A DNA stretch of 14,252 bases from Verrucomicrobiota bacterium (GTDB lineage: Bacteria; Verrucomicrobiota; Verrucomicrobiia; Chthoniobacterales; UBA6821), in the NCBI GenBank assembly GCA_008932965.1, contig WBXG01000042.1:1-14252 (forward strand), written 5' to 3'. Positions 1,870 to 13,178 of this stretch are shown piece after piece; position 1 is the first letter of the stretch; every line of letters begins with the position of its first letter. Position numbers and translations under genes: made by a program. The notes beneath the pieces are model-generated. The model was not told where the DNA came from and searched no databases. It saw only the letters and a program-made list of their open reading frames with translations.

Positions 1870-3741
1870 TTATATCTCCTTTAAAACCATCTCCTCATTT
1901 CCTCTTGCCAGTTTTTCTAGTGAAAACATAAGTACTATGAGCATCCAGGTTAGTTCATCAAGACGATGATCCTTCCGAGCCTGATTTAAAAAAACTGTCA
2001 GGCTTTTTGCTGAGAGCTGTCCCGAGGTCAATGAAGAGAGCGCGCGAGGGAGCTCATCGTAAATAGGAGCGAATGATTTTTGATGAAGCCATGCATGCAA
2101 CGGAGGATTAAACCCACGCTTGGGTCCAACTAATGCATGAATGCCAATTTGTTGTTGCAGGAATTGTTTTGGAGGTTGTGTAAAACGTTCTTGAAGTGGC
2201 ATCCCTAGAACAGCTTCAAAAAAACGATGGTCCAACATGGGACTTCGAAGCTCTAAGCCATGAGCCATGCCACAGAGATCTGATTTTTTTAAAATATATT
2301 CTGGTAGATAATTGAGGCGGTCACACTCAAGCATCCATGCCATTGGGGAAAGTGCTTTGCTAGGGCGCCTCCAATAACTCGTTTCTACTGAAATATCAGG
2401 TTGTAAAAAAGCTCGTGAAATTGGATCAAAGGCAGCAAAGCGTAACGCATAGGACTCTTCCCATCCCAGTTGATAACTCAGTAATGTTCTCTTGAGGCGT
2501 CCATAACGTGCGGTTTTAAGAGACAATGAAGAGGCATTCCAGGAGCGTTTTTTTCCATAGCGAGGAAGAAAAAAAGCCCCACGTTGATGCACGTGATAAC
2601 GTTTATAACCTGCAAAAAGCTCATCTCCACCATCACCAGAGAGTGCCACAACGATTTTTTTGACAGCAGCTTGGCATAAGTACCATGTAGGGATAGCTGA
2701 AGGGTCGGCAAAGGGTTCATCAAGGTCACCCACAATAGTGGCTAGATCTTCTACCTGCATTTTTATAGGAAGTGCCGTTTGTGAGAGACCTAATCGATGT
2801 GCAATTTCACCTGCTGCACCGGACTCATCATAGGAATTACTATTTGGAAAAGATGCGGTGAAGGTCGGAAGTTCAGGTAGCATTTTCCCGTGTGCAATGA
2901 GAGCTGCGATGGCTTGAGAGTCGATACCACCACTTAGAAAAAGGCCTAAAGGACGATCTGAGATAAGACGAAGGCGAATCGATTCCTTTAGGAGAGCTGC
3001 TGGATTGTCATGAGGGGAGGGTTGTGGTTTCCAGTATTCTTGTGGTTCCGCAGCAACAGGAATACCACTCTCTAGAGAAACAACCAGAGAGTGAGCTGCT
3101 GGTAATTTGCAAAAACCCTCTATGATGGAAAGGGGGGCGGGAATGTAGCGGTGTGTTAAAAATGCATCAATTGCATTGGGATTCCATGAGTGAGTCGTTC
3201 CCACAATTTTGGAAAGTGCACCTACAGTACTTGCAAAGGCAAAGAGATTATTTTTAACGGTATAAAAAAGAGGTTTTTCCCCAAGGCGATCACGCGCGAG
3301 GAAAAGACGTCGTTTTCGTAGATCTAGGATGGAAAAGGAGAACATGCCCCGAAGATGTTCTAATACAGCATCTCCCCATTCTTCATAGCCATGCAAAATA
3401 AACTCGGTATCAGAATGACTTTTAAAATGATGACCCTGGTGTCGCAAACCTTGGGCCTCCTCTTCCCATCCATAAATTTCACCATTATAAATAATCCAGA
3501 GAGAACCATCTTCATTACCCATCGGTTGTCCTGCGGCGGTCGAGAGATCACGAATGCTGAGGCGCCTATGAATCAAAGCAGCAGAACCAATAGCAGCGTG
3601 ACGCCATCCTTGTTCTGGAGAAAAAGAAAATTGTTCAGAGCCCCAGCTATCTGGCCCGCGCGCCTGAAGTGACGTTTGTGCTCCTTCAATTTGAGCAGGA
3701 GTCACCCATTTCTCAGAGATAATACCAGCAATACCACACAT
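1870..3741 (-). CDS. asnB: Asparagine synthase (glutamine-hydrolysing), AsnB family
   Basis: 623-aa ORF. N-terminal MCGIAG carries the Cys2 nucleophile of class II glutamine amidotransferases. The PP-loop LSGGIDSQ lies in the synthetase domain. Length is typical of AsnB. Confidence 0.9.
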   Translation of the reverse strand: MCGIAGIISEKWVTPAQIEGAQTSLQARGPDSWGSEQFSFSPEQGWRHAAIGSAALIHRRLSIRDLSTAAGQPMGNEDGSLWIIYNGEIYGWEEEAQGLRHQGHHFKSHSDTEFILHGYEEWGDAVLEHLRGMFSFSILDLRKRRLFLARDRLGEKPLFYTVKNNLFAFASTVGALSKIVGTTHSWNPNAIDAFLTHRYIPAPLSIIEGFCKLPAAHSLVVSLESGIPVAAEPQEYWKPQPSPHDNPAALLKESIRLRLISDRPLGLFLSGGIDSQAIAALIAHGKMLPELPTFTASFPNSNSYDESGAAGEIAHRLGLSQTALPIKMQVEDLATIVGDLDEPFADPSAIPTWYLCQAAVKKIVVALSGDGGDELFAGYKRYHVHQRGAFFLPRYGKKRSWNASSLSLKTARYGRLKRTLLSYQLGWEESYALRFAAFDPISRAFLQPDISVETSYWRRPSKALSPMAWMLECDRLNYLPEYILKKSDLCGMAHGLELRSPMLDHRFFEAVLGMPLQERFTQPPKQFLQQQIGIHALVGPKRGFNPPLHAWLHQKSFAPIYDELPRALSSLTSGQLSAKSLTVFLNQARKDHRLDELTWMLIVLMFSLEKLARGNEEMVLKEI

Positions 3742-3916: not shown

Positions 3917-4279
3917 ATGCAAGCTTGCCTTACGAAGACCTTCACGTTCGAAGCCGCTCAAACTATTCCTCACCTTGAGGCCACTCATAAATGCACACGT
4001 ATGCATGGCCATAGTTTTAAAATTGAGATTTCTGTCCAAGGTGAGGTTGATCCTCATATTGGTTGGGTTTATGATCATGCAAATATCTCCAAGGCGATGG
4101 CCCCTTTACTAGCATTAGTTGATCATTCCTACCTCAATGAGATTGAGGGCTTAGAAAATCCAACTATTGAAAATATGTGTGCTTGGTTTTGGAAGAAGCT
4201 CACTCCGTCACTTTCCGGTCTCTTTGAAATCGTTCTTCATGAGACTCCAACTGCACGGTGTAGTTATCGCGGAGAATAA
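3917..4279 (+). CDS. queD: 6-carboxy-5,6,7,8-tetrahydropterin synthase (QueD / PTPS family)
   Basis: 120-aa ORF with CTRMHGHSF (CxxxHGH zinc/catalytic motif) and HETPT near the C-terminus. Size and motifs are typical of QueD. Confidence 0.85.
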   Translation: MQACLTKTFTFEAAQTIPHLEATHKCTRMHGHSFKIEISVQGEVDPHIGWVYDHANISKAMAPLLALVDHSYLNEIEGLENPTIENMCAWFWKKLTPSLSGLFEIVLHETPTARCSYRGE

Positions 4280-4285
4280 GGTTAA

Positions 4286-4464
4286 CCCGCATATTTCACA
4301 CTAAATCTATTACGGCTTGTGGAAAGCTCATCATTACTGCGTTGGTCTCGAATTGTGATTTGGGCAGTATGAAACATACAGCCCGGCATCCCAATCCTTT
4401 GCCAGCCTTGTACTAATAAGCTTTGCGCGGCGCCTCATGACACTTCAGTATGAAATATCCGGGC
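4286..4464 (+). mobile_element. MITE-like palindromic element, copy A (best preserved, intergenic)
   Basis: Left end AACCCGCATATTTCACACTA (4285-4304) matches the reverse complement of the right end CAGTATGAAATATCCGGGCT (4446-4465) in 16 of 20 positions. A symmetric inner inverted pair is AAAGCT (4323-4328) / AGCTTT (4419-4424). TAA flanks both sides (4283-4285, 4465-4467). The right end shares an exact 16-mer ATGAAATATCCGGGCT (4450-4465) with copy B (6437-6452). Confidence 0.8.
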
Positions 4465-5510
4465 TAAGAACCCCTCTGTTGCTGCATCAAGAAGGCAATG
4501 TGCTGATCGCGCTGCTCAATATTTTGATGAAGTCCTGCTACAAATTGAAATTTTTCCATGATTGTTTTATTAAGATCAATAATGGTTTTAAGTTGATCTT
4601 TATTCGTTGTTTGAAGATTTTCATTGATCTCCATCAATTGATGAATGGATTGGTTGTTTTTTTCCTCTAATAACAGAAGTGATTTGACGAAGGAGAATTG
4701 GGTTTTCCATTTTGGGAGAGATTTTTCTAGCTCTTCAAAGCTAATACGATCTGTAGCAACCGCATGGAGTTTTTCATAAATCTCGAAGGCGAAAGTGTAG
4801 CAAGAACTATTTTTGAGGTGGCTCGCTTGTTCTTCATAAAAGTGACGTAATGAAGGATCGATGAAATCACAGCTGTAAGATCTCAATACTTTAGGAAGAA
4901 GCGGAAGCATGAATGACTCAGCAACGCGCTCCATTTGATACTTTGGATTTTTTATAAGTTCATCATAATCGACAACACTTCGCTTCGTGCCTTGAGTGTA
5001 TTCTATGCAGCTTAGAAGATACGATATCCAGACCCACAAAGATTTTTCATAGTGTTGATTTTTATAATATTCGTGGGAGGCAGGAACATTCGATGGATTT
5101 CGTAGAGCTATCACAAAAGAGACATCAACTTCACAGTGATTAAAAACATGCCTCCAAAAAGGAAGTAAAAGGGAAAAACGAGGGTCTTTGATACCAAGAA
5201 GATGATTTTCCGAAAGTTTGTTAGATAGTAATTCTGAGGCAACTGATAAGTAGCCGCACTGCAACAGGTGGGTTGCTTCCTCCTCATCAATAGAAAGAAT
5301 ACGCCTCAAACGATCCTCATAGAAATCAAGTATGAAGCCATTAAAGCCATGAAAATCGGCATCCTCCCAGAACCCTTTTTCATTAAAAATATTAGAAGGA
5401 ATGAAGGTGTTGCCTAGAGATACGCCCATTGTCTCAAGGCCTTTTGTAATAGCGCTTGTGCCACTGCGAGGCGGGCCGACAACAACAATAACTCGATCTT
5501 TTTTATTCAT
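4464..5510 (-). CDS. Sulfotransferase-family protein with C-terminal coiled coil, paralog 1
   Basis: ORF 4464..5534. I prefer the ATG at 5510 (MNKKDRVIVVVG), which matches the N-termini of the paralogs ([24 protein letters not shown]). GPPRSGTSA resembles a 5'-phosphosulfate-binding loop and ALRNPSNVPAS a 3'-phosphate-binding motif. Also present are NEKGFWED, KDPRFSLLLPFW and SLWVWISY. The last ~80 aa are heptad-like and rich in Q/E/K/L. Confidence 0.75.
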   Translation of the reverse strand: MNKKDRVIVVVGPPRSGTSAITKGLETMGVSLGNTFIPSNIFNEKGFWEDADFHGFNGFILDFYEDRLRRILSIDEEEATHLLQCGYLSVASELLSNKLSENHLLGIKDPRFSLLLPFWRHVFNHCEVDVSFVIALRNPSNVPASHEYYKNQHYEKSLWVWISYLLSCIEYTQGTKRSVVDYDELIKNPKYQMERVAESFMLPLLPKVLRSYSCDFIDPSLRHFYEEQASHLKNSSCYTFAFEIYEKLHAVATDRISFEELEKSLPKWKTQFSFVKSLLLLEEKNNQSIHQLMEINENLQTTNKDQLKTIIDLNKTIMEKFQFVAGLHQNIEQRDQHIAFLMQQQRGS

Positions 5511-5515
5511 TACAT

Positions 5516-6946
5516 TTATGCAGCAATCAAACAATTCTGTATTTCCGAAGTTTGTCTGAGCTGGAAGAGTTCTTTATCAAGTGCTGATTGCGCTTGTATA
5601 AGAGCGGCAATTTGAGACTCACGTTGATCGGTTTCTTTTTTGTAATGAGTGATAGAATGGGAATTTTGATTAATAGTTTTTTGTATTTGGTAAATGGATT
5701 CATCAAGGTTTGTTATTTTTTCTTGAAGCTGATTGATCGTGGCATCTTTTTTTTCAGCTAGAACTAAAAGATCGTTAGCTTCCAAAAAAGCTTTTTTCCA
5801 TTTTATGAAGGACTTTTTTAATGACTCAAAAGGTTTCTTATCCTGAGTCACTTCAAGTAGTTTTGTGTATATTTCTAAAGTAAATTGCTGATAAAATCCC
5901 TCTGATTTCAGCTCCTCTAGTGCTTGATGGTAATGACGCCGGGAAGGGTCAATGTACTCGCAGTAGGATGCTAGAGACTTCTGTTCTAAGGTCAGGTCAA
6001 GTGTATGAGCAACTCTTGTCATTTGATGCATGGGGTTTTCGATAAGCTCGTCGTAATCTACGAAAACACGTTGATAACCATTGGAATGTTCCAGGCAACA
6101 TAAGATATAAGAAATCCAAACCCAAAAAGATTTTTCTAGATATTCTTTTTTGGAGGCCGCCACACTCCAGGGATTTCTGAAAGCGATCACAATAGATACT
6201 TCAAGATGACACTTCTGAAATACTTGTTTCCAAAACGGAAGTAAGAGTGTGAAAAGAGGGTCATGAAGGACTAATTCGGATATTGCATCCTCATCTACTA
6301 CGGAAGCTGGGAAGTCAGATGGTTCCTGCGTTAGACTCACATTTTTACTTGGGCCGTAGGGACTCATACAGCCGTCGTCAGACTTCATCACGTACCTTAA
6401 CTCATCAGCCTTTGCGGCCTCCTCATCATGATCAGCATGAAATATCCGGGCTGGAGGCGACTTATGAGCCATCTGTTCTAATAACAGCTGAGTGGCTCTC
6501 GTGAAAAAGCCCTCGTTTTTTAAGAGTGCGATTTCTTTTTTAGTAATGGAGATAATGCACCGGTGACGTTCTTGGAAAAAATGGAGCATTTCCCAATTCA
6601 GTGAATGAAACACAGAATCGTTCCGATTTTTTTTTGGAGGAAAATAATGGAGGGTGATTTGTGCTAAATCTAATTCGGATATTTCATGGCGATCACCTCT
6701 AAACGCTGAGTAGCCTGTTGGATATTGCGTTAAAATCTTATTTGGATCTCGTAAGTATCTGCTTATAGAGTCCTGTAAAAAAACAGGTGACTGGCTAGTC
6801 CCATCGAGCATGGCAGATTCCTCGTCAACATTAGTATCAATGATATGGGATAAAAAGCCCCCCATGGTTTCAAGTCCTCTTGAGAGGAGGTTGATGCCAC
6901 TATGGGGCATTCCAATAATTAAAATGATGCGTGGTTTCTTCTTCAT
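5516..6946 (-). CDS. Sulfotransferase-like paralog 2, enlarged by two in-frame element insertions, with degenerate nucleotide-binding motifs
   Basis: 476-aa ORF. It is collinear with paralogs 1 and 3 once the inserts at 6275-6460 and 6674-6850 are removed. It keeps LLLPFWKQVF, AFRNPWSVAAS, FWVWISY and the coiled-coil tail. It has GMPHSGINL instead of PRSGTS/HRSGSS and lacks the KGxWED block. Its stop (5516-5518) lies 5 nt before the paralog 1 ATG. Confidence 0.8.
   Translation of the reverse strand: MKKKPRIILIIGMPHSGINLLSRGLETMGGFLSHIIDTNVDEESAMLDGTSQSPVFLQDSISRYLRDPNKILTQYPTGYSAFRGDRHEISELDLAQITLHYFPPKKNRNDSVFHSLNWEMLHFFQERHRCIISITKKEIALLKNEGFFTRATQLLLEQMAHKSPPARIFHADHDEEAAKADELRYVMKSDDGCMSPYGPSKNVSLTQEPSDFPASVVDEDAISELVLHDPLFTLLLPFWKQVFQKCHLEVSIVIAFRNPWSVAASKKEYLEKSFWVWISYILCCLEHSNGYQRVFVDYDELIENPMHQMTRVAHTLDLTLEQKSLASYCEYIDPSRRHYHQALEELKSEGFYQQFTLEIYTKLLEVTQDKKPFESLKKSFIKWKKAFLEANDLLVLAEKKDATINQLQEKITNLDESIYQIQKTINQNSHSITHYKKETDQRESQIAALIQAQSALDKELFQLRQTSEIQNCLIAA
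6275..6451 (+). mobile_element. MITE-like element, copy B, in frame within paralog 2
   Basis: Left end CGGATATTGCATCC (6277-6290) matches the reverse complement of the right end (CGGATATTTCATGC) in 12 of 14 positions. Length is 177 nt. CTCATACAGCC (6363-6373) recurs in copy D (10629-10639). The ORF stays open across the copy. Confidence 0.8.
6674..6850 (+). mobile_element. MITE-like element, copy C, in frame within paralog 2
   Basis: Left end TTCGGATATTTCATGGC (6674-6690). An exact 14-mer CTAATTCGGATATT is shared with copy B (6670-6683 and 6271-6284). The interior aligns with copy D (AGCCTG.TG.ATA.TGCGT...CTT(G)ATTTG). The right end is diverged (TTAGTATCAATGATATGGGA). Flanked by TAA at 6671-6673 and 6851-6853. 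Exactly 177 nt = 59 codons. Confidence 0.75.
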
Positions 6947-6952
6947 TTTAGT

Positions 6953-6967
6953 CTTGAGAGTCTCAAG
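6953..6967 (-). promoter_or_regulatory. Small perfect palindrome/hairpin 6 nt upstream of the paralog 2 start codon
   Basis: CTTGAGAGTCTCAAG. On the mRNA strand this reads CUUGAG-ACU-CUCAAG, a 6-bp stem, placed where a ribosome-binding site would be. Confidence 0.3.
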
Positions 6968-6985
6968 GAATAATGAGGCTTGCTA

Positions 6986-7007
6986 CTTGACTCATTGTTG
7001 AGTCAAG
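6986..7007 (-). promoter_or_regulatory. 9-bp perfect stem-loop spanning the paralog 3 stop codon
   Basis: CTTGACTCA-TTGT-TGAGTCAAG. It overlaps the stop codon at 6992-6994. No U-tract follows on the mRNA strand, so it is not a canonical intrinsic terminator. Confidence 0.35.
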
Positions 7008-8050
7008 AGACGGATTTCTTGATTACATTGTTCGTAATGATGTTCTAGAAATGCAATTTGAAGATTTTTTTGATGTAATTTCTTGCAAGAATCAGCAATG
7101 GAATATAACTGATTATTGACCATTTTACCTAAGTTAAAAATGGTTTGTTCTCTCTTGAAAATGATATCCTCGAGTTTACCTATTTTCAGATTATTCTTTT
7201 CAGTCATGACTAAAAGCGCATCAGTTTGAAGAAATTGTTTTTTCCATTGGTGCATCAGTCTTCCTATATCGTGAAAAGAGGTTTGATCTTGAGCAATAGA
7301 AAGGAGTGTTTCATAAATTTCCATTGCAAATTTTTTGTAAAAACAGTCGTTATCCAAAGTTTTTTTTTCTTCTTGATAGTGACATAAGGAGGGATCAATA
7401 AATTCCTCGCAATACTCTTGGAGTGCCTCCGAGTTGATTGTCAGCCTCAAGGCATGAGCAACTCTTTGCATCTGATGTGCCGGATCTTTTAGCAGTTCTT
7501 GATATTCTACTATAATACGATCATAGCCTGAGGAATGCTCCAAGCAACTTAGGAGATAGGAAATCCAGGACCAAAAAGCAACCTCTTGATCCTTTGTTTT
7601 AAGATAAAAATAAGAAGACGTAGCAACATTCCATGGATTTCTTAATGTGATTACAAACGAAAGATCGATATCATTTGCATGAAAAACTTTTTTCCAAAAA
7701 GGAAGCAGAGGAGAAAAATTGGGGTTTTTAATCCCGAATATTTTGTGATCAGAGATTTTTTGAATCAAAAGATCAGAGGCTTTACAAAAAAAATCATGCC
7801 GACACAACCGCTCTCTCTCCTCCTCATTGATAGCTCGTATCCGTTGATCACGATTTCCCAAAAAATCTAATAGGCTAACATTTAATTTGTTAAATTCAAA
7901 ATCTTCCCAATGGCCTTTCTGATTATAAGGATTTGCTCCAATTAATGAATCACCCAATGAAACCCCCATTGATGTGAGTCCTTTTGTGAAGGCACTTGAT
8001 CCACTTCGATGAGTTCCAATAACAATAATAACTCGTTTTTTCTTGTTCAT
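6992..8050 (-). CDS. Sulfotransferase-family protein with C-terminal coiled coil, paralog 3
   Basis: 352-aa ORF with [47 protein letters not shown] and a coiled-coil tail. Its ATG overlaps the fumC stop (ATGA, 8047-8050). Confidence 0.75.
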
Positions 8051-10531: not shown

Positions 10532-10538
10532 AAGGGCT

Positions 10539-10715
10539 TCCAGATATTTCTTGCTGATTTTGCTACGGCATGCGAGAGCCTGATGTATACTGCGTCAGCC
10601 TTGATTTGCTCCTCGGGTAATGTGGTGCCTCATACAGCCCGTCGTAGTTCATCGACCCTCTTGTACTAACACCTTAATTCTGCAGTCGAGAAAAAATTGT
10701 ATGGTTCCTATTTTC
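10539..10715 (+). mobile_element. MITE-like element, copy D (right end decayed), between the lipoprotein gene and ruvC
   Basis: GATATTTCTTGCTGAT (10543-10558) matches the reverse complement of copy B ATCAGCATGAAATATC in 15 of 16 positions. CTCATACAGCCCGTCGT (10629-10645) matches copy B CTCATACAGCCGTCGT. TTGTACTAA (10661-10669) is shared with copy A (4409-4417). The right boundary is only estimated from the 177-nt unit length. Confidence 0.55.
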
Positions 10716-10770
10716 CCAAGAGATAGGTTGCTTCCTACGCTACGCCTTGAATTTGACCTTAGTTCATTTT

Positions 10771-11310
10771 ATGCGCCTCCTTTCCATAGATCCATCATTA
10801 CGCGGAACTGGCTTTGCCATTTTAGAAGAGCAGGGAACCGCCGTTCGCTGTTTGCAATATGGAGTGATTCAAAATCCTCCAAAACGTAATATATCAGATT
10901 CATTATTAACCATTCACGATCGATTGCTAACAGCTATTTCAGAGTACCAACCTGAGGTTGTCGTTTTAGAAAGTATCATCTATGTTCAAAGTCATTCTAC
11001 TGCAATTGTTCTAGGAGCTGCTCGCGGAGTCGTTTTATTACTAGCAGCACAACATGGGATACCAATCTATGAGTATCCCCCAAGACGTGTTAAGCAGGCT
11101 GTTGTTGGATTTGGGGGAGCAGAAAAAAAACAAGTAGCCTTTATGGTACGGGCGTTGCTGGGATTGAGAGAAACCCCTCCAAGTGATGCTGCAGATGCCA
11201 TCGCTATTGGATTAACTCACTTACATACTGGTTCTATACTTGTTTCAAAAAAAAGAGATTCTAAAAAGAGAGGTTCTTGGAAAAACTTTATTGAGCAGCA
11301 AATAAAATGA
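10771..11310 (+). CDS. ruvC: Crossover junction endodeoxyribonuclease RuvC
   Basis: MRLLSIDPSLRGTGFAILE (catalytic Asp), VVLESI (Glu) and SDAADAIAIGLTH (Asp/His). I prefer ATG 10771 over the ORF-track TTG 10747. The short K/R-rich C-terminal tail is atypical. Confidence 0.88.
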   Translation: MRLLSIDPSLRGTGFAILEEQGTAVRCLQYGVIQNPPKRNISDSLLTIHDRLLTAISEYQPEVVVLESIIYVQSHSTAIVLGAARGVVLLLAAQHGIPIYEYPPRRVKQAVVGFGGAEKKQVAFMVRALLGLRETPPSDAADAIAIGLTHLHTGSILVSKKRDSKKRGSWKNFIEQQIK

Positions 11311-11348
11311 CCTGTTAACGAGTAAAGTGTAACAGCGAACAAAAAATC

Positions 11349-13178
11349 ATGATATCGATTGGCACTTCTCGTCCTCGTAATGTTGATTGGCCTCGAGCTG
11401 CAGCCATCCTCTATGGTGATTTAGGAACAAGCAAAGCGTATGTCATTGGACTTGCCTTTGCTGTTGCAGGTTACAGTTCCTTTTGGCTCCTACTGCCGAT
11501 GTGTATTTTGACAACTTTAGTCGGCATCAATTACATGACTATTTGTCGTCTCTATCCCAATGGTGGAGGTGTCTATGCAAGTGTGCGTCATCGCTCGGAG
11601 GTTCTTTCTATTGTTGGAGCATTCCTTCTTATCGCAGACTATCTTGTCACTGCAGCATTAAGCGCCTTATCGGCATTTCAATATTTAGGAGTTCCTAAAC
11701 CGGCCTATTGTGCAGGAGCAGCTATTGTGATTATTGGCTTTTTGAATTTCTTTGGGCCTCGAAAAACGGCTTTTTTAGCAATACTTATCTCAATACCAAC
11801 CGCACTCATTGTTCTTCTTATCTCCATTTTTGCATTGCCACATATAGGAGCAGCAGTTGCTCATCTTCAACCCTTACACGGAAGTTTCGGTCATAGCTGG
11901 ATTAGTTTTGTAGGTATGGTCCTTGCATTATCGGGAATTGAGGCGGTTGCCAATACCACAGGCATTATGAAGCTAGATCCAGGAAGTTCTTTAGAGAATC
12001 CAGTTGTAAAAAAAACATCTACAAAAGCTATCTTTGTGGTTCTTCTGGAAGTCGTCTTCTTTACCGCTTTTTTGGGGCTGTTGATGCTCGCTTTAAAGGG
12101 GCTCACAATCGTTCATGGTGATGTTAATGCTCCTGGAGCAGAGGGGGTACGTGACTACATGTTACGCTATATGGGAGAAATTTTTGTGGGAAACATCTTG
12201 GGAACCCACTGGGGAATCCTTGCTGGCTGCATCATCAGCATCGCTTTTGCACTACTCCTTCTCTCAGCCGTTAATACAGCCATCATCGATTTGATTGCCA
12301 TCTGTTTTTTAATGTCTAAAGACCAAGAGCTGCCCCCTTTTTTTTCCAAACTCAATCAGTTTGGTGTTCCTCACTTTTCCCTAATACCTATGACGCTCAT
12401 TCCTGCTGCACTGGTGATCAGTATAGGTGATATTGCAGCTCTAGCAAATCTCTATGCGATTGGTGTTATAGGGGCCATTGCTACAAATTTAGGATCCACT
12501 TCTACCGACTGGAAACTTCCTATGTTACGACGAGAGCGCTTGCTAATGTTAATGGCATTTGTCGTATTACTCGCCATTGAAATAACTCTTTTTATTGAGA
12601 AACCCAATGCACGTATTTTTGTCGTTACTACATTAGCAATTGGTTTAATCCTGCGTGGTCTCGCTAAAGAGTATGGGCTTCGCAAAGAAGTAAAAGAGAT
12701 GAGCCATTCTATTGAAGATAGTACTACTATTATTACTCCAAGTAGTAATCAAAGTGATGTTGAAAACCGAAAGAAACCTTCTTCTCCTCCCATTTTAGTT
12801 GCCGTAAAAACAAAGTGTAAAACGCTCGATTATGCTTTAAGAGAATCCGATAAAACTGGAAGCCCTCTCTACGTTTTATTTATACGGCAACAACCGATCA
12901 TTACCTCTAAAGATAAAAAAAGAAATTGGCAGAAAGACAAACAAGCAAAAGCTCTCTTTGAAAGTCTAGACCCACAGATGTTAGGAAAAACTATTTTCCC
13001 ATGCTACGTGGTGAGTGATTCGCCGAAGGATACCATTTTAGAGATGATATCAACTCTTGGTGCAGAGTCTCTTATTGTTGGGCCTTCACGCAGGAATGGA
13101 TTAATTCGTATTCTGAGAGAAAATTTAATTGAAAGTCTTTCAAAAAGTCTTCCAGAGAATATCGATCTTGTGGTTTGA
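11349..13178 (+). CDS. APC-superfamily permease fused to a C-terminal universal-stress-protein (USP)-like domain
   Basis: 609-aa ORF. The first ~440 aa are polytopic and hydrophobic, with YPNGGGVYASV typical of amino acid/polyamine permeases. The C-terminal ~140 aa (PPILVAVKTKCKTLDYAL...LYVLFIRQQ...ESLIVGPSRRNGLIRIL) follow the USP alpha/beta pattern. Confidence 0.7.
   Translation: MISIGTSRPRNVDWPRAAAILYGDLGTSKAYVIGLAFAVAGYSSFWLLLPMCILTTLVGINYMTICRLYPNGGGVYASVRHRSEVLSIVGAFLLIADYLVTAALSALSAFQYLGVPKPAYCAGAAIVIIGFLNFFGPRKTAFLAILISIPTALIVLLISIFALPHIGAAVAHLQPLHGSFGHSWISFVGMVLALSGIEAVANTTGIMKLDPGSSLENPVVKKTSTKAIFVVLLEVVFFTAFLGLLMLALKGLTIVHGDVNAPGAEGVRDYMLRYMGEIFVGNILGTHWGILAGCIISIAFALLLLSAVNTAIIDLIAICFLMSKDQELPPFFSKLNQFGVPHFSLIPMTLIPAALVISIGDIAALANLYAIGVIGAIATNLGSTSTDWKLPMLRRERLLMLMAFVVLLAIEITLFIEKPNARIFVVTTLAIGLILRGLAKEYGLRKEVKEMSHSIEDSTTIITPSSNQSDVENRKKPSSPPILVAVKTKCKTLDYALRESDKTGSPLYVLFIRQQPIITSKDKKRNWQKDKQAKALFESLDPQMLGKTIFPCYVVSDSPKDTILEMISTLGAESLIVGPSRRNGLIRILRENLIESLSKSLPENIDLVV

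Follow-up and report, generated by a model that had tools for sequence, protein, structure and literature searches.

In-frame fusion of short repeats to bacterial genes is known for the Rickettsia palindromic elements (RPEs) and for the ERIC, Correia, and QMITE elements, and reviews single out the RPEs for the frequency with which it occurs. Passages of PMC10969869 and PMC2229807 trace families RPE-1 to RPE-10 of Rickettsia to Ogata et al. (2000, 2002), and one review assigns the RPEs 12-bp inverted repeats and a question mark for target duplication; the beta subunit of phenylalanyl-tRNA synthetase (PheT) is an RPE host (PMC3767692). Here, we analyze a 14,252-nt stretch ("the window") of a lake-metagenome contig from JGI that was also deposited as a "Verrucomicrobia bacterium" metagenome-assembled genome (MAG) with DVB29_ locus tags (contig WBXG01000042.1, assembly GCA_008932965.1) and that comes from an uncultured freshwater bacterium. 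One of its three tandem sulfotransferase genes, paralog 2 (open reading frame [ORF] at 5516 to 6946, minus strand; 476 amino acids [aa]), has very probably been hit twice, independently, by a nonautonomous transposable element of the miniature inverted-repeat type (MITE). The duplication that accompanies this element, 4 bp of a YTAR target in direct orientation, is a hallmark of IS5 itself and its subgroup.

A reading made from the letters of the window without database searches (the sequence-only reading) had likened the insertions to RPEs. This likeness holds insofar as the repeat is a short dispersed palindrome that folds as one long stem-loop, is fused in frame through an open frame in many unrelated genes, and adds peptides that are seemingly tolerated in loops, with PheT serving as a host in both systems; it is nevertheless an analogy: the element works like an RPE but apparently belongs to none of the families RPE-1 to RPE-10, from which its host, length, and duplication set it apart. 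It resides in Chthoniobacterales (Verrucomicrobiota) rather than in Rickettsia, has a core of 176 nt (versus 105 to 146 nt for RPEs) and inverted repeats of ~25 bp (versus 12 bp), makes a defined 4-bp YTAR duplication, is read through in both orientations, and occupies sites that are filled in some related genomes and empty in others.

ERIC (127-bp form), Correia/NEMIS (107-bp form), and QMITE1/QMITE2 of Coxiella burnetii likewise have inverted-repeat ends, a target duplication, and a stem-loop transcript, and they are occasionally fused in frame or extend a protein at its C terminus; as here, there are QMITE copies that overlap stop codons. In contrast, these elements mostly duplicate TA or 7 to 9 bp, not YTAR, and in-frame fusion is occasional among them, whereas 18 of 91 full-length copies are read through here and 20 of 91 lie on a stop codon. 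The IS5 group shares the 4-bp YTAR duplication and terminal inverted repeats, but the loci searched yielded neither a transposase gene nor any longer element bounded by matching ends. It has the attributes of a MITE, being small, without capacity for a transposase, bounded by inverted repeats, flanked by a target duplication with filled and empty sites, and dispersed in many copies. Full-text literature searching found no report of such MITEs in Verrucomicrobia.

Paralog 2 carries two in-frame copies of the repeat

The three sulfotransferase genes form a tandem array on the minus strand, in which paralog 2 is flanked by paralog 1 (4464 to 5534; 356 aa from a TTG start, 348 aa per JGI) and paralog 3 (6992 to 8050; 352 aa). 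Each matches sulfotransferase families (for example, paralog 3 matches PF13469 with 36.2 bits [cutoff, 27] and paralog 2 matches PF00685 with 23.3 bits [cutoff, 22]), and no Pfam match in paralog 2 covers either insert. The proposal that paralog 2 has two extra in-frame segments, for which its neighbors serve as uninterrupted controls, was borne out by a protein alignment of the three paralogs: two blocks are unique to paralog 2, paralogs 1 and 3 lack both, and the family profile matches both.

We set the insert boundaries by reading the window sequence against the family consensus. Insert 1 (6670 to 6853, minus strand) consists of a 5' flank, TTAT (6853 to 6850), a 176-nt core (6849 to 6674), and a 3' flank, TTAG (6673 to 6670), and insert 2 (6271 to 6454, minus strand) consists of a 5' flank, CCAG (6454 to 6451), a 176-nt core (6450 to 6275), and a 3' flank, TTAG (6274 to 6271). 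They encode residues 32 to 91 and 165 to 224 of paralog 2, respectively. The unit had been taken to be 177 nt long; it is a 176-nt core plus a 4-nt duplication, and the 177-nt spans overran the unit by one base on the 5' side. The insert lengths given earlier, 59 and 62 aa, were close, but both inserts are really 60 aa long, so that together they make the gene 120 codons longer than its neighbors, and the remaining length difference reflects other small indels.

The supposed kinship of the two inserts was also confirmed, since they align without gaps at the DNA level, with 107 of 197 columns identical, and the nhmmer family profile detects both (E = 8e-50 for insert 2 and 1.7e-16 for insert 1). 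The end motif CATGAAATATCCG, which is common to both, occurs 5 times in the window versus 0.47 times expected by chance. As previously read from the sequence, the inserts have the same orientation and the same frame, exit through ...EISEL and ...AISEL, and contain no stop codon in that frame, which is open in the consensus as well. The junction peptides read ...LETMGGFLSHIIDT... and ...HEISELDLAQ... for insert 1 and ...MAHKSPPARIFHADHDEE... and ...DAISELVLHDP... for insert 2. When paralog 2 was used as a search query, four unrelated proteins matched over insert 2 alone, with segments 51 to 69% identical to its peptide: P0029, P0031, P0033, and P0034, which comprise a ResB-like protein, an OprB porin, and two other proteins (one from the same MAG).

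An AlphaFold model of paralog 2 based on a 31-sequence alignment had a mean predicted local distance difference test (pLDDT) score of 77, with 262 residues above 90 and the C-terminal two thirds of the protein in this range; the nearest PDB structures were all phosphoadenosine phosphosulfate (PAPS) sulfotransferases. Scores below 50 occurred essentially only in the insert-bearing stretches, namely, residues 35 to 107 and, in three pieces, residues 168 to 217. Insert 1 was placed after the P-loop helix and insert 2 before the strand formed by residues 224 to 228. The model, a check that the sequence-only reading had proposed, thus places both inserts in low-confidence loops of the sulfotransferase fold.

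Both copies are old, with identity to the consensus down to 80% in insert 2 and 61% in insert 1. The 5' inverted repeat and hairpin of insert 1 have decayed (RNA fold z = +0.3), while insert 2 folds with -52 kcal/mol (z = -1.6); the weakness of both hairpins reflects the age of the copies. All three codon positions differ from the consensus to a similar extent (23/25/23 in insert 1 and 14/12/11 in insert 2), so sequence constraint on the inserted peptides was unsupported, and the peptides are apparently not constrained in sequence. Under random substitution, the chance that a copy would remain free of stop codons is 0.078 for insert 1 and 0.24 for insert 2.

The element is a 176-nt palindrome that duplicates a YTAR target

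Across the family, the element is bounded by complementary inverted repeats of ~25 bp (CCCGGATATTTCATACTGATC...), as seen, for example, in the copy at 3408 to 3591 of contig L002, and the terminal stem is retained in all 43 aligned copies. A core of 176 nt was the commonest length, being found in 44 of the 91 full-length copies with recognizable ends. The four bases on each side of the core read Y-T-A-R (n = 91), and the two flanks of a copy co-vary: we counted 31 TTAA/TTAA, 16 CTAG/CTAG, and 5 TTAG/TTAG pairs but no TTAG/CTAA pair. The flanks are therefore a direct target duplication and not an extension of the inverted repeat, and the element enters YTAR sites and duplicates these 4 bp. For the two copies in paralog 2, this duplication is extrapolated from the family.

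The consensus forms a hairpin of nearly full length (-93.4 kcal/mol, z = -10.6). Together with its flanks, it is free of stop codons in one frame per strand, frame 0, in which the YTA of the flank is a codon; the other four frames contain 3 to 5 stop codons each. The open frames are 61 codons long, which, with a core of 176 nt, leaves no capacity for a transposase. They encode one consensus peptide per strand, LTRIFHTDRDEEAAKADG...DQYEISGL and LTRIFHTDLLRSPGSQMDAAL...DQYEISGL.

RNAalifold recovered only the terminal and apical stems from the 43 aligned copies, because the alignment does not bring subfamilies with different arms into register. Each side shows three or more arm types (alignment A6), and the left and right arms were matched in most copies, which implies that a hairpin of its own is preserved in every subfamily. 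Arm types are mixed in some copies, for example those in L011, L003, and L053. At pair 89-98, A-U is replaced by G-C in five of the 43 copies.

When species-representative genomes were scanned for the end motif, at least 84 stretches were obtained, and nearly all of those listed came from four Chthoniobacterales/Spartobacteria MAGs. Lineages carrying the repeat include Kiruna_bin-02438, Tobar2m-G38, Deming_bin.170, and the DVB29 MAG. Within ~600 kb of loci from four Chthoniobacterales MAGs and related metagenome contigs, nhmmer returned 217 nonoverlapping matches, 96 of which were at least 170 nt long. The scan had two hits outside the order, neither of them a confirmed copy: a Saprospiraceae contig (L027) gave a weak 40-nt nhmmer match (E = 9e-4), and a Coxiellaceae contig (L055) gave none. 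The element had no match among PLSDB plasmids, and the profile confirmed none of the four 18-mer matches in IMG/VR. An Rfam search of positions 4000 to 7200 at E values up to 1 yielded one subthreshold chance match and no family. A peptide search returned just 27 short ORFs inside free-standing copies and no long host protein, and it is unfit as a census. Free-standing copies have been called as "hypothetical proteins" of 57 to 107 aa in NCBI, JGI, and ENA (P0036 to P0062, e.g., DVB29_04665).

The phase of the target decides the outcome of an insertion

Since the core and its duplication sum to 180 nt, each insertion adds exactly 60 codons, and the phase of the target decides whether the gene is read through, its stop codon is restored, or it is truncated. 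Where YTA is a Leu codon, the ORF runs on through the element whichever way the latter is oriented, since it is in this phase that each strand of the consensus has its one open frame. A hydrophilic segment of 60 residues, which starts with L(T/A)RIFHTD and ends with (Y)EI(S/C)GL, is thereby added to the host protein. Where TAR is the codon, the site must be a stop codon, which the duplication rebuilds, leaving the gene untouched. In the third phase, the ORF terminates after ...NPDISY*. Both copies in paralog 2 are insertions of the first, Leu-codon phase in the same orientation.

Among the 18 read-through copies in long ORFs, the core is uniformly 176 nt long and frame 0 is the only one used; 13 are in the "+" orientation and 5 are in the "-" orientation, and two of the 18 come from a single porin gene present in two assemblies. 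The hosts include PheT, PyrF (orotidine monophosphate decarboxylase), AroD (type I 3-dehydroquinase), GlnD (two copies), an AddB-like PD-(D/E)XK nuclease, two PMT-type glycosyltransferases, OprB, ResB, and a low-molecular-weight phosphatase. For the 20 copies on stop codons, the coincidence is exact and the ORF that ends there has 100 codons or more; one of these ORFs is paralog 1. Another 8 of the 91 copies terminate an ORF after NPDISY*, and about 45 of the 91 are intergenic.

We compared these counts with the free YTAR sites in the same loci. The Leu-codon phase in genes accounted for 2,969 free sites (38%), the third phase for 2,401 (31%), intergenic DNA for 2,284 (29%), and stop codons for just 120 (1.5%). 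Relative to the free sites, copies are greatly overrepresented at stop codons and underrepresented in the disruptive phase, a pattern to be expected from selection acting on insertions once they have occurred. Gene-embedded copies are slightly nearer the consensus than other copies (P = 0.017). Selection for a weaker hairpin in coding copies was unsupported, since the hairpins of embedded copies are just as stable as those of the rest (-85 versus -84 kcal/mol on average; P = 0.25 in a residual test).

Filled and empty sites differ by the element

The window contains an empty target in the asparagine synthase gene asnB, where TTAG lies at 2946 to 2949 (minus strand) and TTA is codon 265 (Leu). 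The asnB ortholog of MAG Tobar2m-G38 (L069, 1292 to 1490) reads CTAG-[element]-CTAG where the window has this single TTAG, and the flanks of the filled and empty sites (window positions 2746 to 3148) are 79% identical on both sides in a nucleotide alignment. The L069 copy sits just before the SGGIDS motif. A second pair was found in a low-molecular-weight phosphatase gene, which is filled in L025 and empty in L016.

For paralog 2 itself, the empty state was found in contig L004, which is syntenic with the window and carries fumC followed by orthologs of paralogs 3, 2, and 1. Its ortholog of paralog 2, P0002, is a 357-aa protein that is 56% identical to paralog 2, has the same C terminus (...EIQNCLIAA), and contains neither insert; the sequence-only reading had proposed a search for such empty sites in orthologs. 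The paralog 3 ortholog of the same contig still contains 72 nt of the element, in frame but oppositely oriented (2391 to 2462; LTRIYPTNHLRNPGSQMDAAL). This remnant replaces the WED-motif loop a few residues from the insert 1 site of paralog 2, and the same loop has therefore been hit independently in two paralogs.

Mechanism and alternative explanations

Taken together, these results make two independent MITE insertions the very probable origin of the extra segments of paralog 2. The element was presumably mobilized in trans by a DDE transposase of the IS5-group type. The inserted peptides are likely tolerated, neutral passengers in surface loops rather than functional additions, and the two insertions were perhaps tolerated because paralog 2 is redundant and possibly already inactive.

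Several observations weigh against this reading. No autonomous partner or transposase was found in a search covering fragments of draft MAGs, where pairs of inverted repeats 0.3 to 4 kb apart enclose ordinary genes, and an all-against-all comparison of 480 ORFs gave only inter-MAG orthologs and no multicopy ORF. In both copies within paralog 2, the flanks have ceased to match each other exactly (TTAT/TTAG and CCAG/TTAG). For a palindrome, a single open frame on each strand is by itself statistically unremarkable, with a chance that we roughly estimate, rather than compute, to be on the order of 0.1. The loci surveyed were chosen for their element content, so the densities and proportions derived from them are biased and indicative only. 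The L069 asnB copy, although in frame on both sides, has one in-frame TAG where the consensus has CAG, so that asnB may be broken in L069. Finally, paralog 2 itself has lost residues that are nearly invariant among its relatives (R15H, T18I, S19N, W108R, E109N, and K228H).

These losses bear on the most serious alternative, namely, that the inserts are real but paralog 2 is a decaying, nonfunctional gene whose open frame is left over from a recent loss of function. Three of them (R15H, T18I, and S19N) fall in the cofactor P-loop, where the phosphosulfate-binding consensus of the subfamily, G-x-x-R-S-G-T-S, is unmatched by GMPHSGIN in paralog 2; W108R and E109N, in the WED motif, adjoin insert 1, and K228H adjoins insert 2. 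Of 72 conserved columns, paralog 2 departs from 13, compared with 3 for paralog 1 and 6 for paralog 3; two intact paralogs adjoin it; and the differences within the inserts show no codon-position bias. However, its insert-free orthologs P0002 and P0003 already depart from 10 to 11 of these columns, which indicates that much of the divergence is lineage-wide rather than decay. Moreover, 476 codons remain open in a genome with ~38 to 40% G+C, both inserts are free of stop codons at 20% and 39% divergence (joint chance, ~0.02 as a product), and the C-terminal two thirds of the model is confidently predicted. We therefore regard a dead paralog as somewhat unlikely. Being in frame is, by itself, no proof that paralog 2 with its two inserts is a functioning enzyme, and it may be inactive.

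The other alternatives concern the origin or fate of the segments. Recurrence of the peptide in several proteins could, taken alone, resemble a shared domain, in which case the segments would be ancestral or derive from a shuffled protein module rather than from DNA insertion. This idea, which the sequence-only reading had raised against itself, is contradicted by the occurrence of the repeat in noncoding DNA and in both orientations, its inverted-repeat ends and co-varying 4-bp direct flanks, filled and empty sites that differ by exactly the element, the absence of both segments from the syntenic ortholog, and the lack of a Pfam match over the inserts; it is highly improbable. Just as improbable is removal of the element after transcription or translation, in the manner of an intron or intein, such that the mature protein would lack the inserts. 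Young copies in coding regions form hairpins of -70 to -103 kcal/mol, and RNase processing of these is conceivable, but cleavage of a hairpin would destroy rather than splice the mRNA. No intron, ribozyme, or other Rfam family was detected between 4000 and 7200 even at E = 1, no intein-like motifs were apparent by eye in the translated peptide, and all embedded copies keep the ORF open in length and frame, which makes sense only if they are translated. An assembly artifact, in which repeats were misjoined into the gene, might be suspected given the metagenomic source of the contig and the frequent location of repeats at contig ends in MAGs. The two copies, however, differ from the consensus by 20 to 39% and from each other, which argues against a collapse or misjoin, and in-frame copies were also seen in ENA assemblies and in four MAGs that had been assembled independently. 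Furthermore, the same 476-aa protein is recorded on three contigs (six member sequences from NCBI, JGI, and GEM), so the ORF is no accident of a single assembly, and there is very little chance that an artifact explains it.

Whether the MITE behind the two insertions is adapted, at the level of the element, to life inside the genes of gene-dense genomes is a separate question, and we consider such adaptation a tentative possibility. A unit of exactly 60 codons, one stop-free hydrophilic frame in each orientation in the phase where YTA encodes Leu, and a target containing TAA or TAG would make two of the three phases nondisruptive, and the element would then be convergent with the RPEs. If so, its clear duplication and empty sites could make it the first tractable model of how a "coding palindrome" spreads.

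Implications for protein evolution and annotation

The phenomenon of in-frame palindromic insertion is itself established, and the present case adds a new phylum in which this rare phenomenon has clearer mechanics. "Coding palindromes" have rested mainly on Rickettsia, and the Chthoniobacterales element points to an independent origin in another phylum. Unlike those of the Rickettsia elements, its insertion rules are legible, with a defined target and duplication and with polymorphic filled and empty sites, and a single phase rule covers read-through, insertion at stop codons, and truncation. Because it has added 60 residues to essential enzymes (PheT, PyrF, AroD, and GlnD), the family offers a natural experiment on the tolerance of loops to insertion and a source of new protein sequence. 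There are also consequences for annotation: embedded copies lengthen proteins and disrupt domain searches, with paralog 2 having no precomputed Pfam match in the collection, and free-standing copies are being annotated as hypothetical proteins.

Other copies in the window and related contigs

A third, full-length copy lies at 4282 to 4467 (minus strand), with flanks TTAG (4467 to 4464) and TTAA (4285 to 4282) around a 178-nt core (4463 to 4286). It takes up the spacer that separates queD (stop codon at 4277 to 4279) from paralog 1, two convergent genes, and its TTAG flank includes the TAG stop codon of paralog 1 (4466 to 4464). The nhmmer profile detects it with E = 1.8e-46, its best alignment being in the same orientation as both inserts. 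Its hairpin persists (-74 kcal/mol on the minus strand and -60 kcal/mol on the plus strand) and could thus act on the 3' ends of both the queD and paralog 1 transcripts. Read from TTG, paralog 1 shares 19 nt (5516 to 5534) with the 3' end of paralog 2; the 348-aa JGI call begins at an ATG farther downstream, and the two genes then no longer overlap. The fourth copy lies at 10537 to 10688 (minus strand) in the spacer upstream of ruvC (nhmmer E = 4.7e-16); it is 5'-truncated and spans profile positions 48 to 179.

Two arrangements were also observed in contig L002. The C-terminal part of P0031 (654 aa, from the same metagenome) is encoded at 3401 to 3644 by a full copy and a directly adjoining partial copy that have a TTAA flank in common, which suggests a tandem or nested insertion read in frame. 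Elsewhere in L002, a copy at 11617 to 11809 overlaps the called start of an epimerase gene (10694 to 11758, minus strand), and either the element supplies the N terminus of this protein or the start codon was miscalled.

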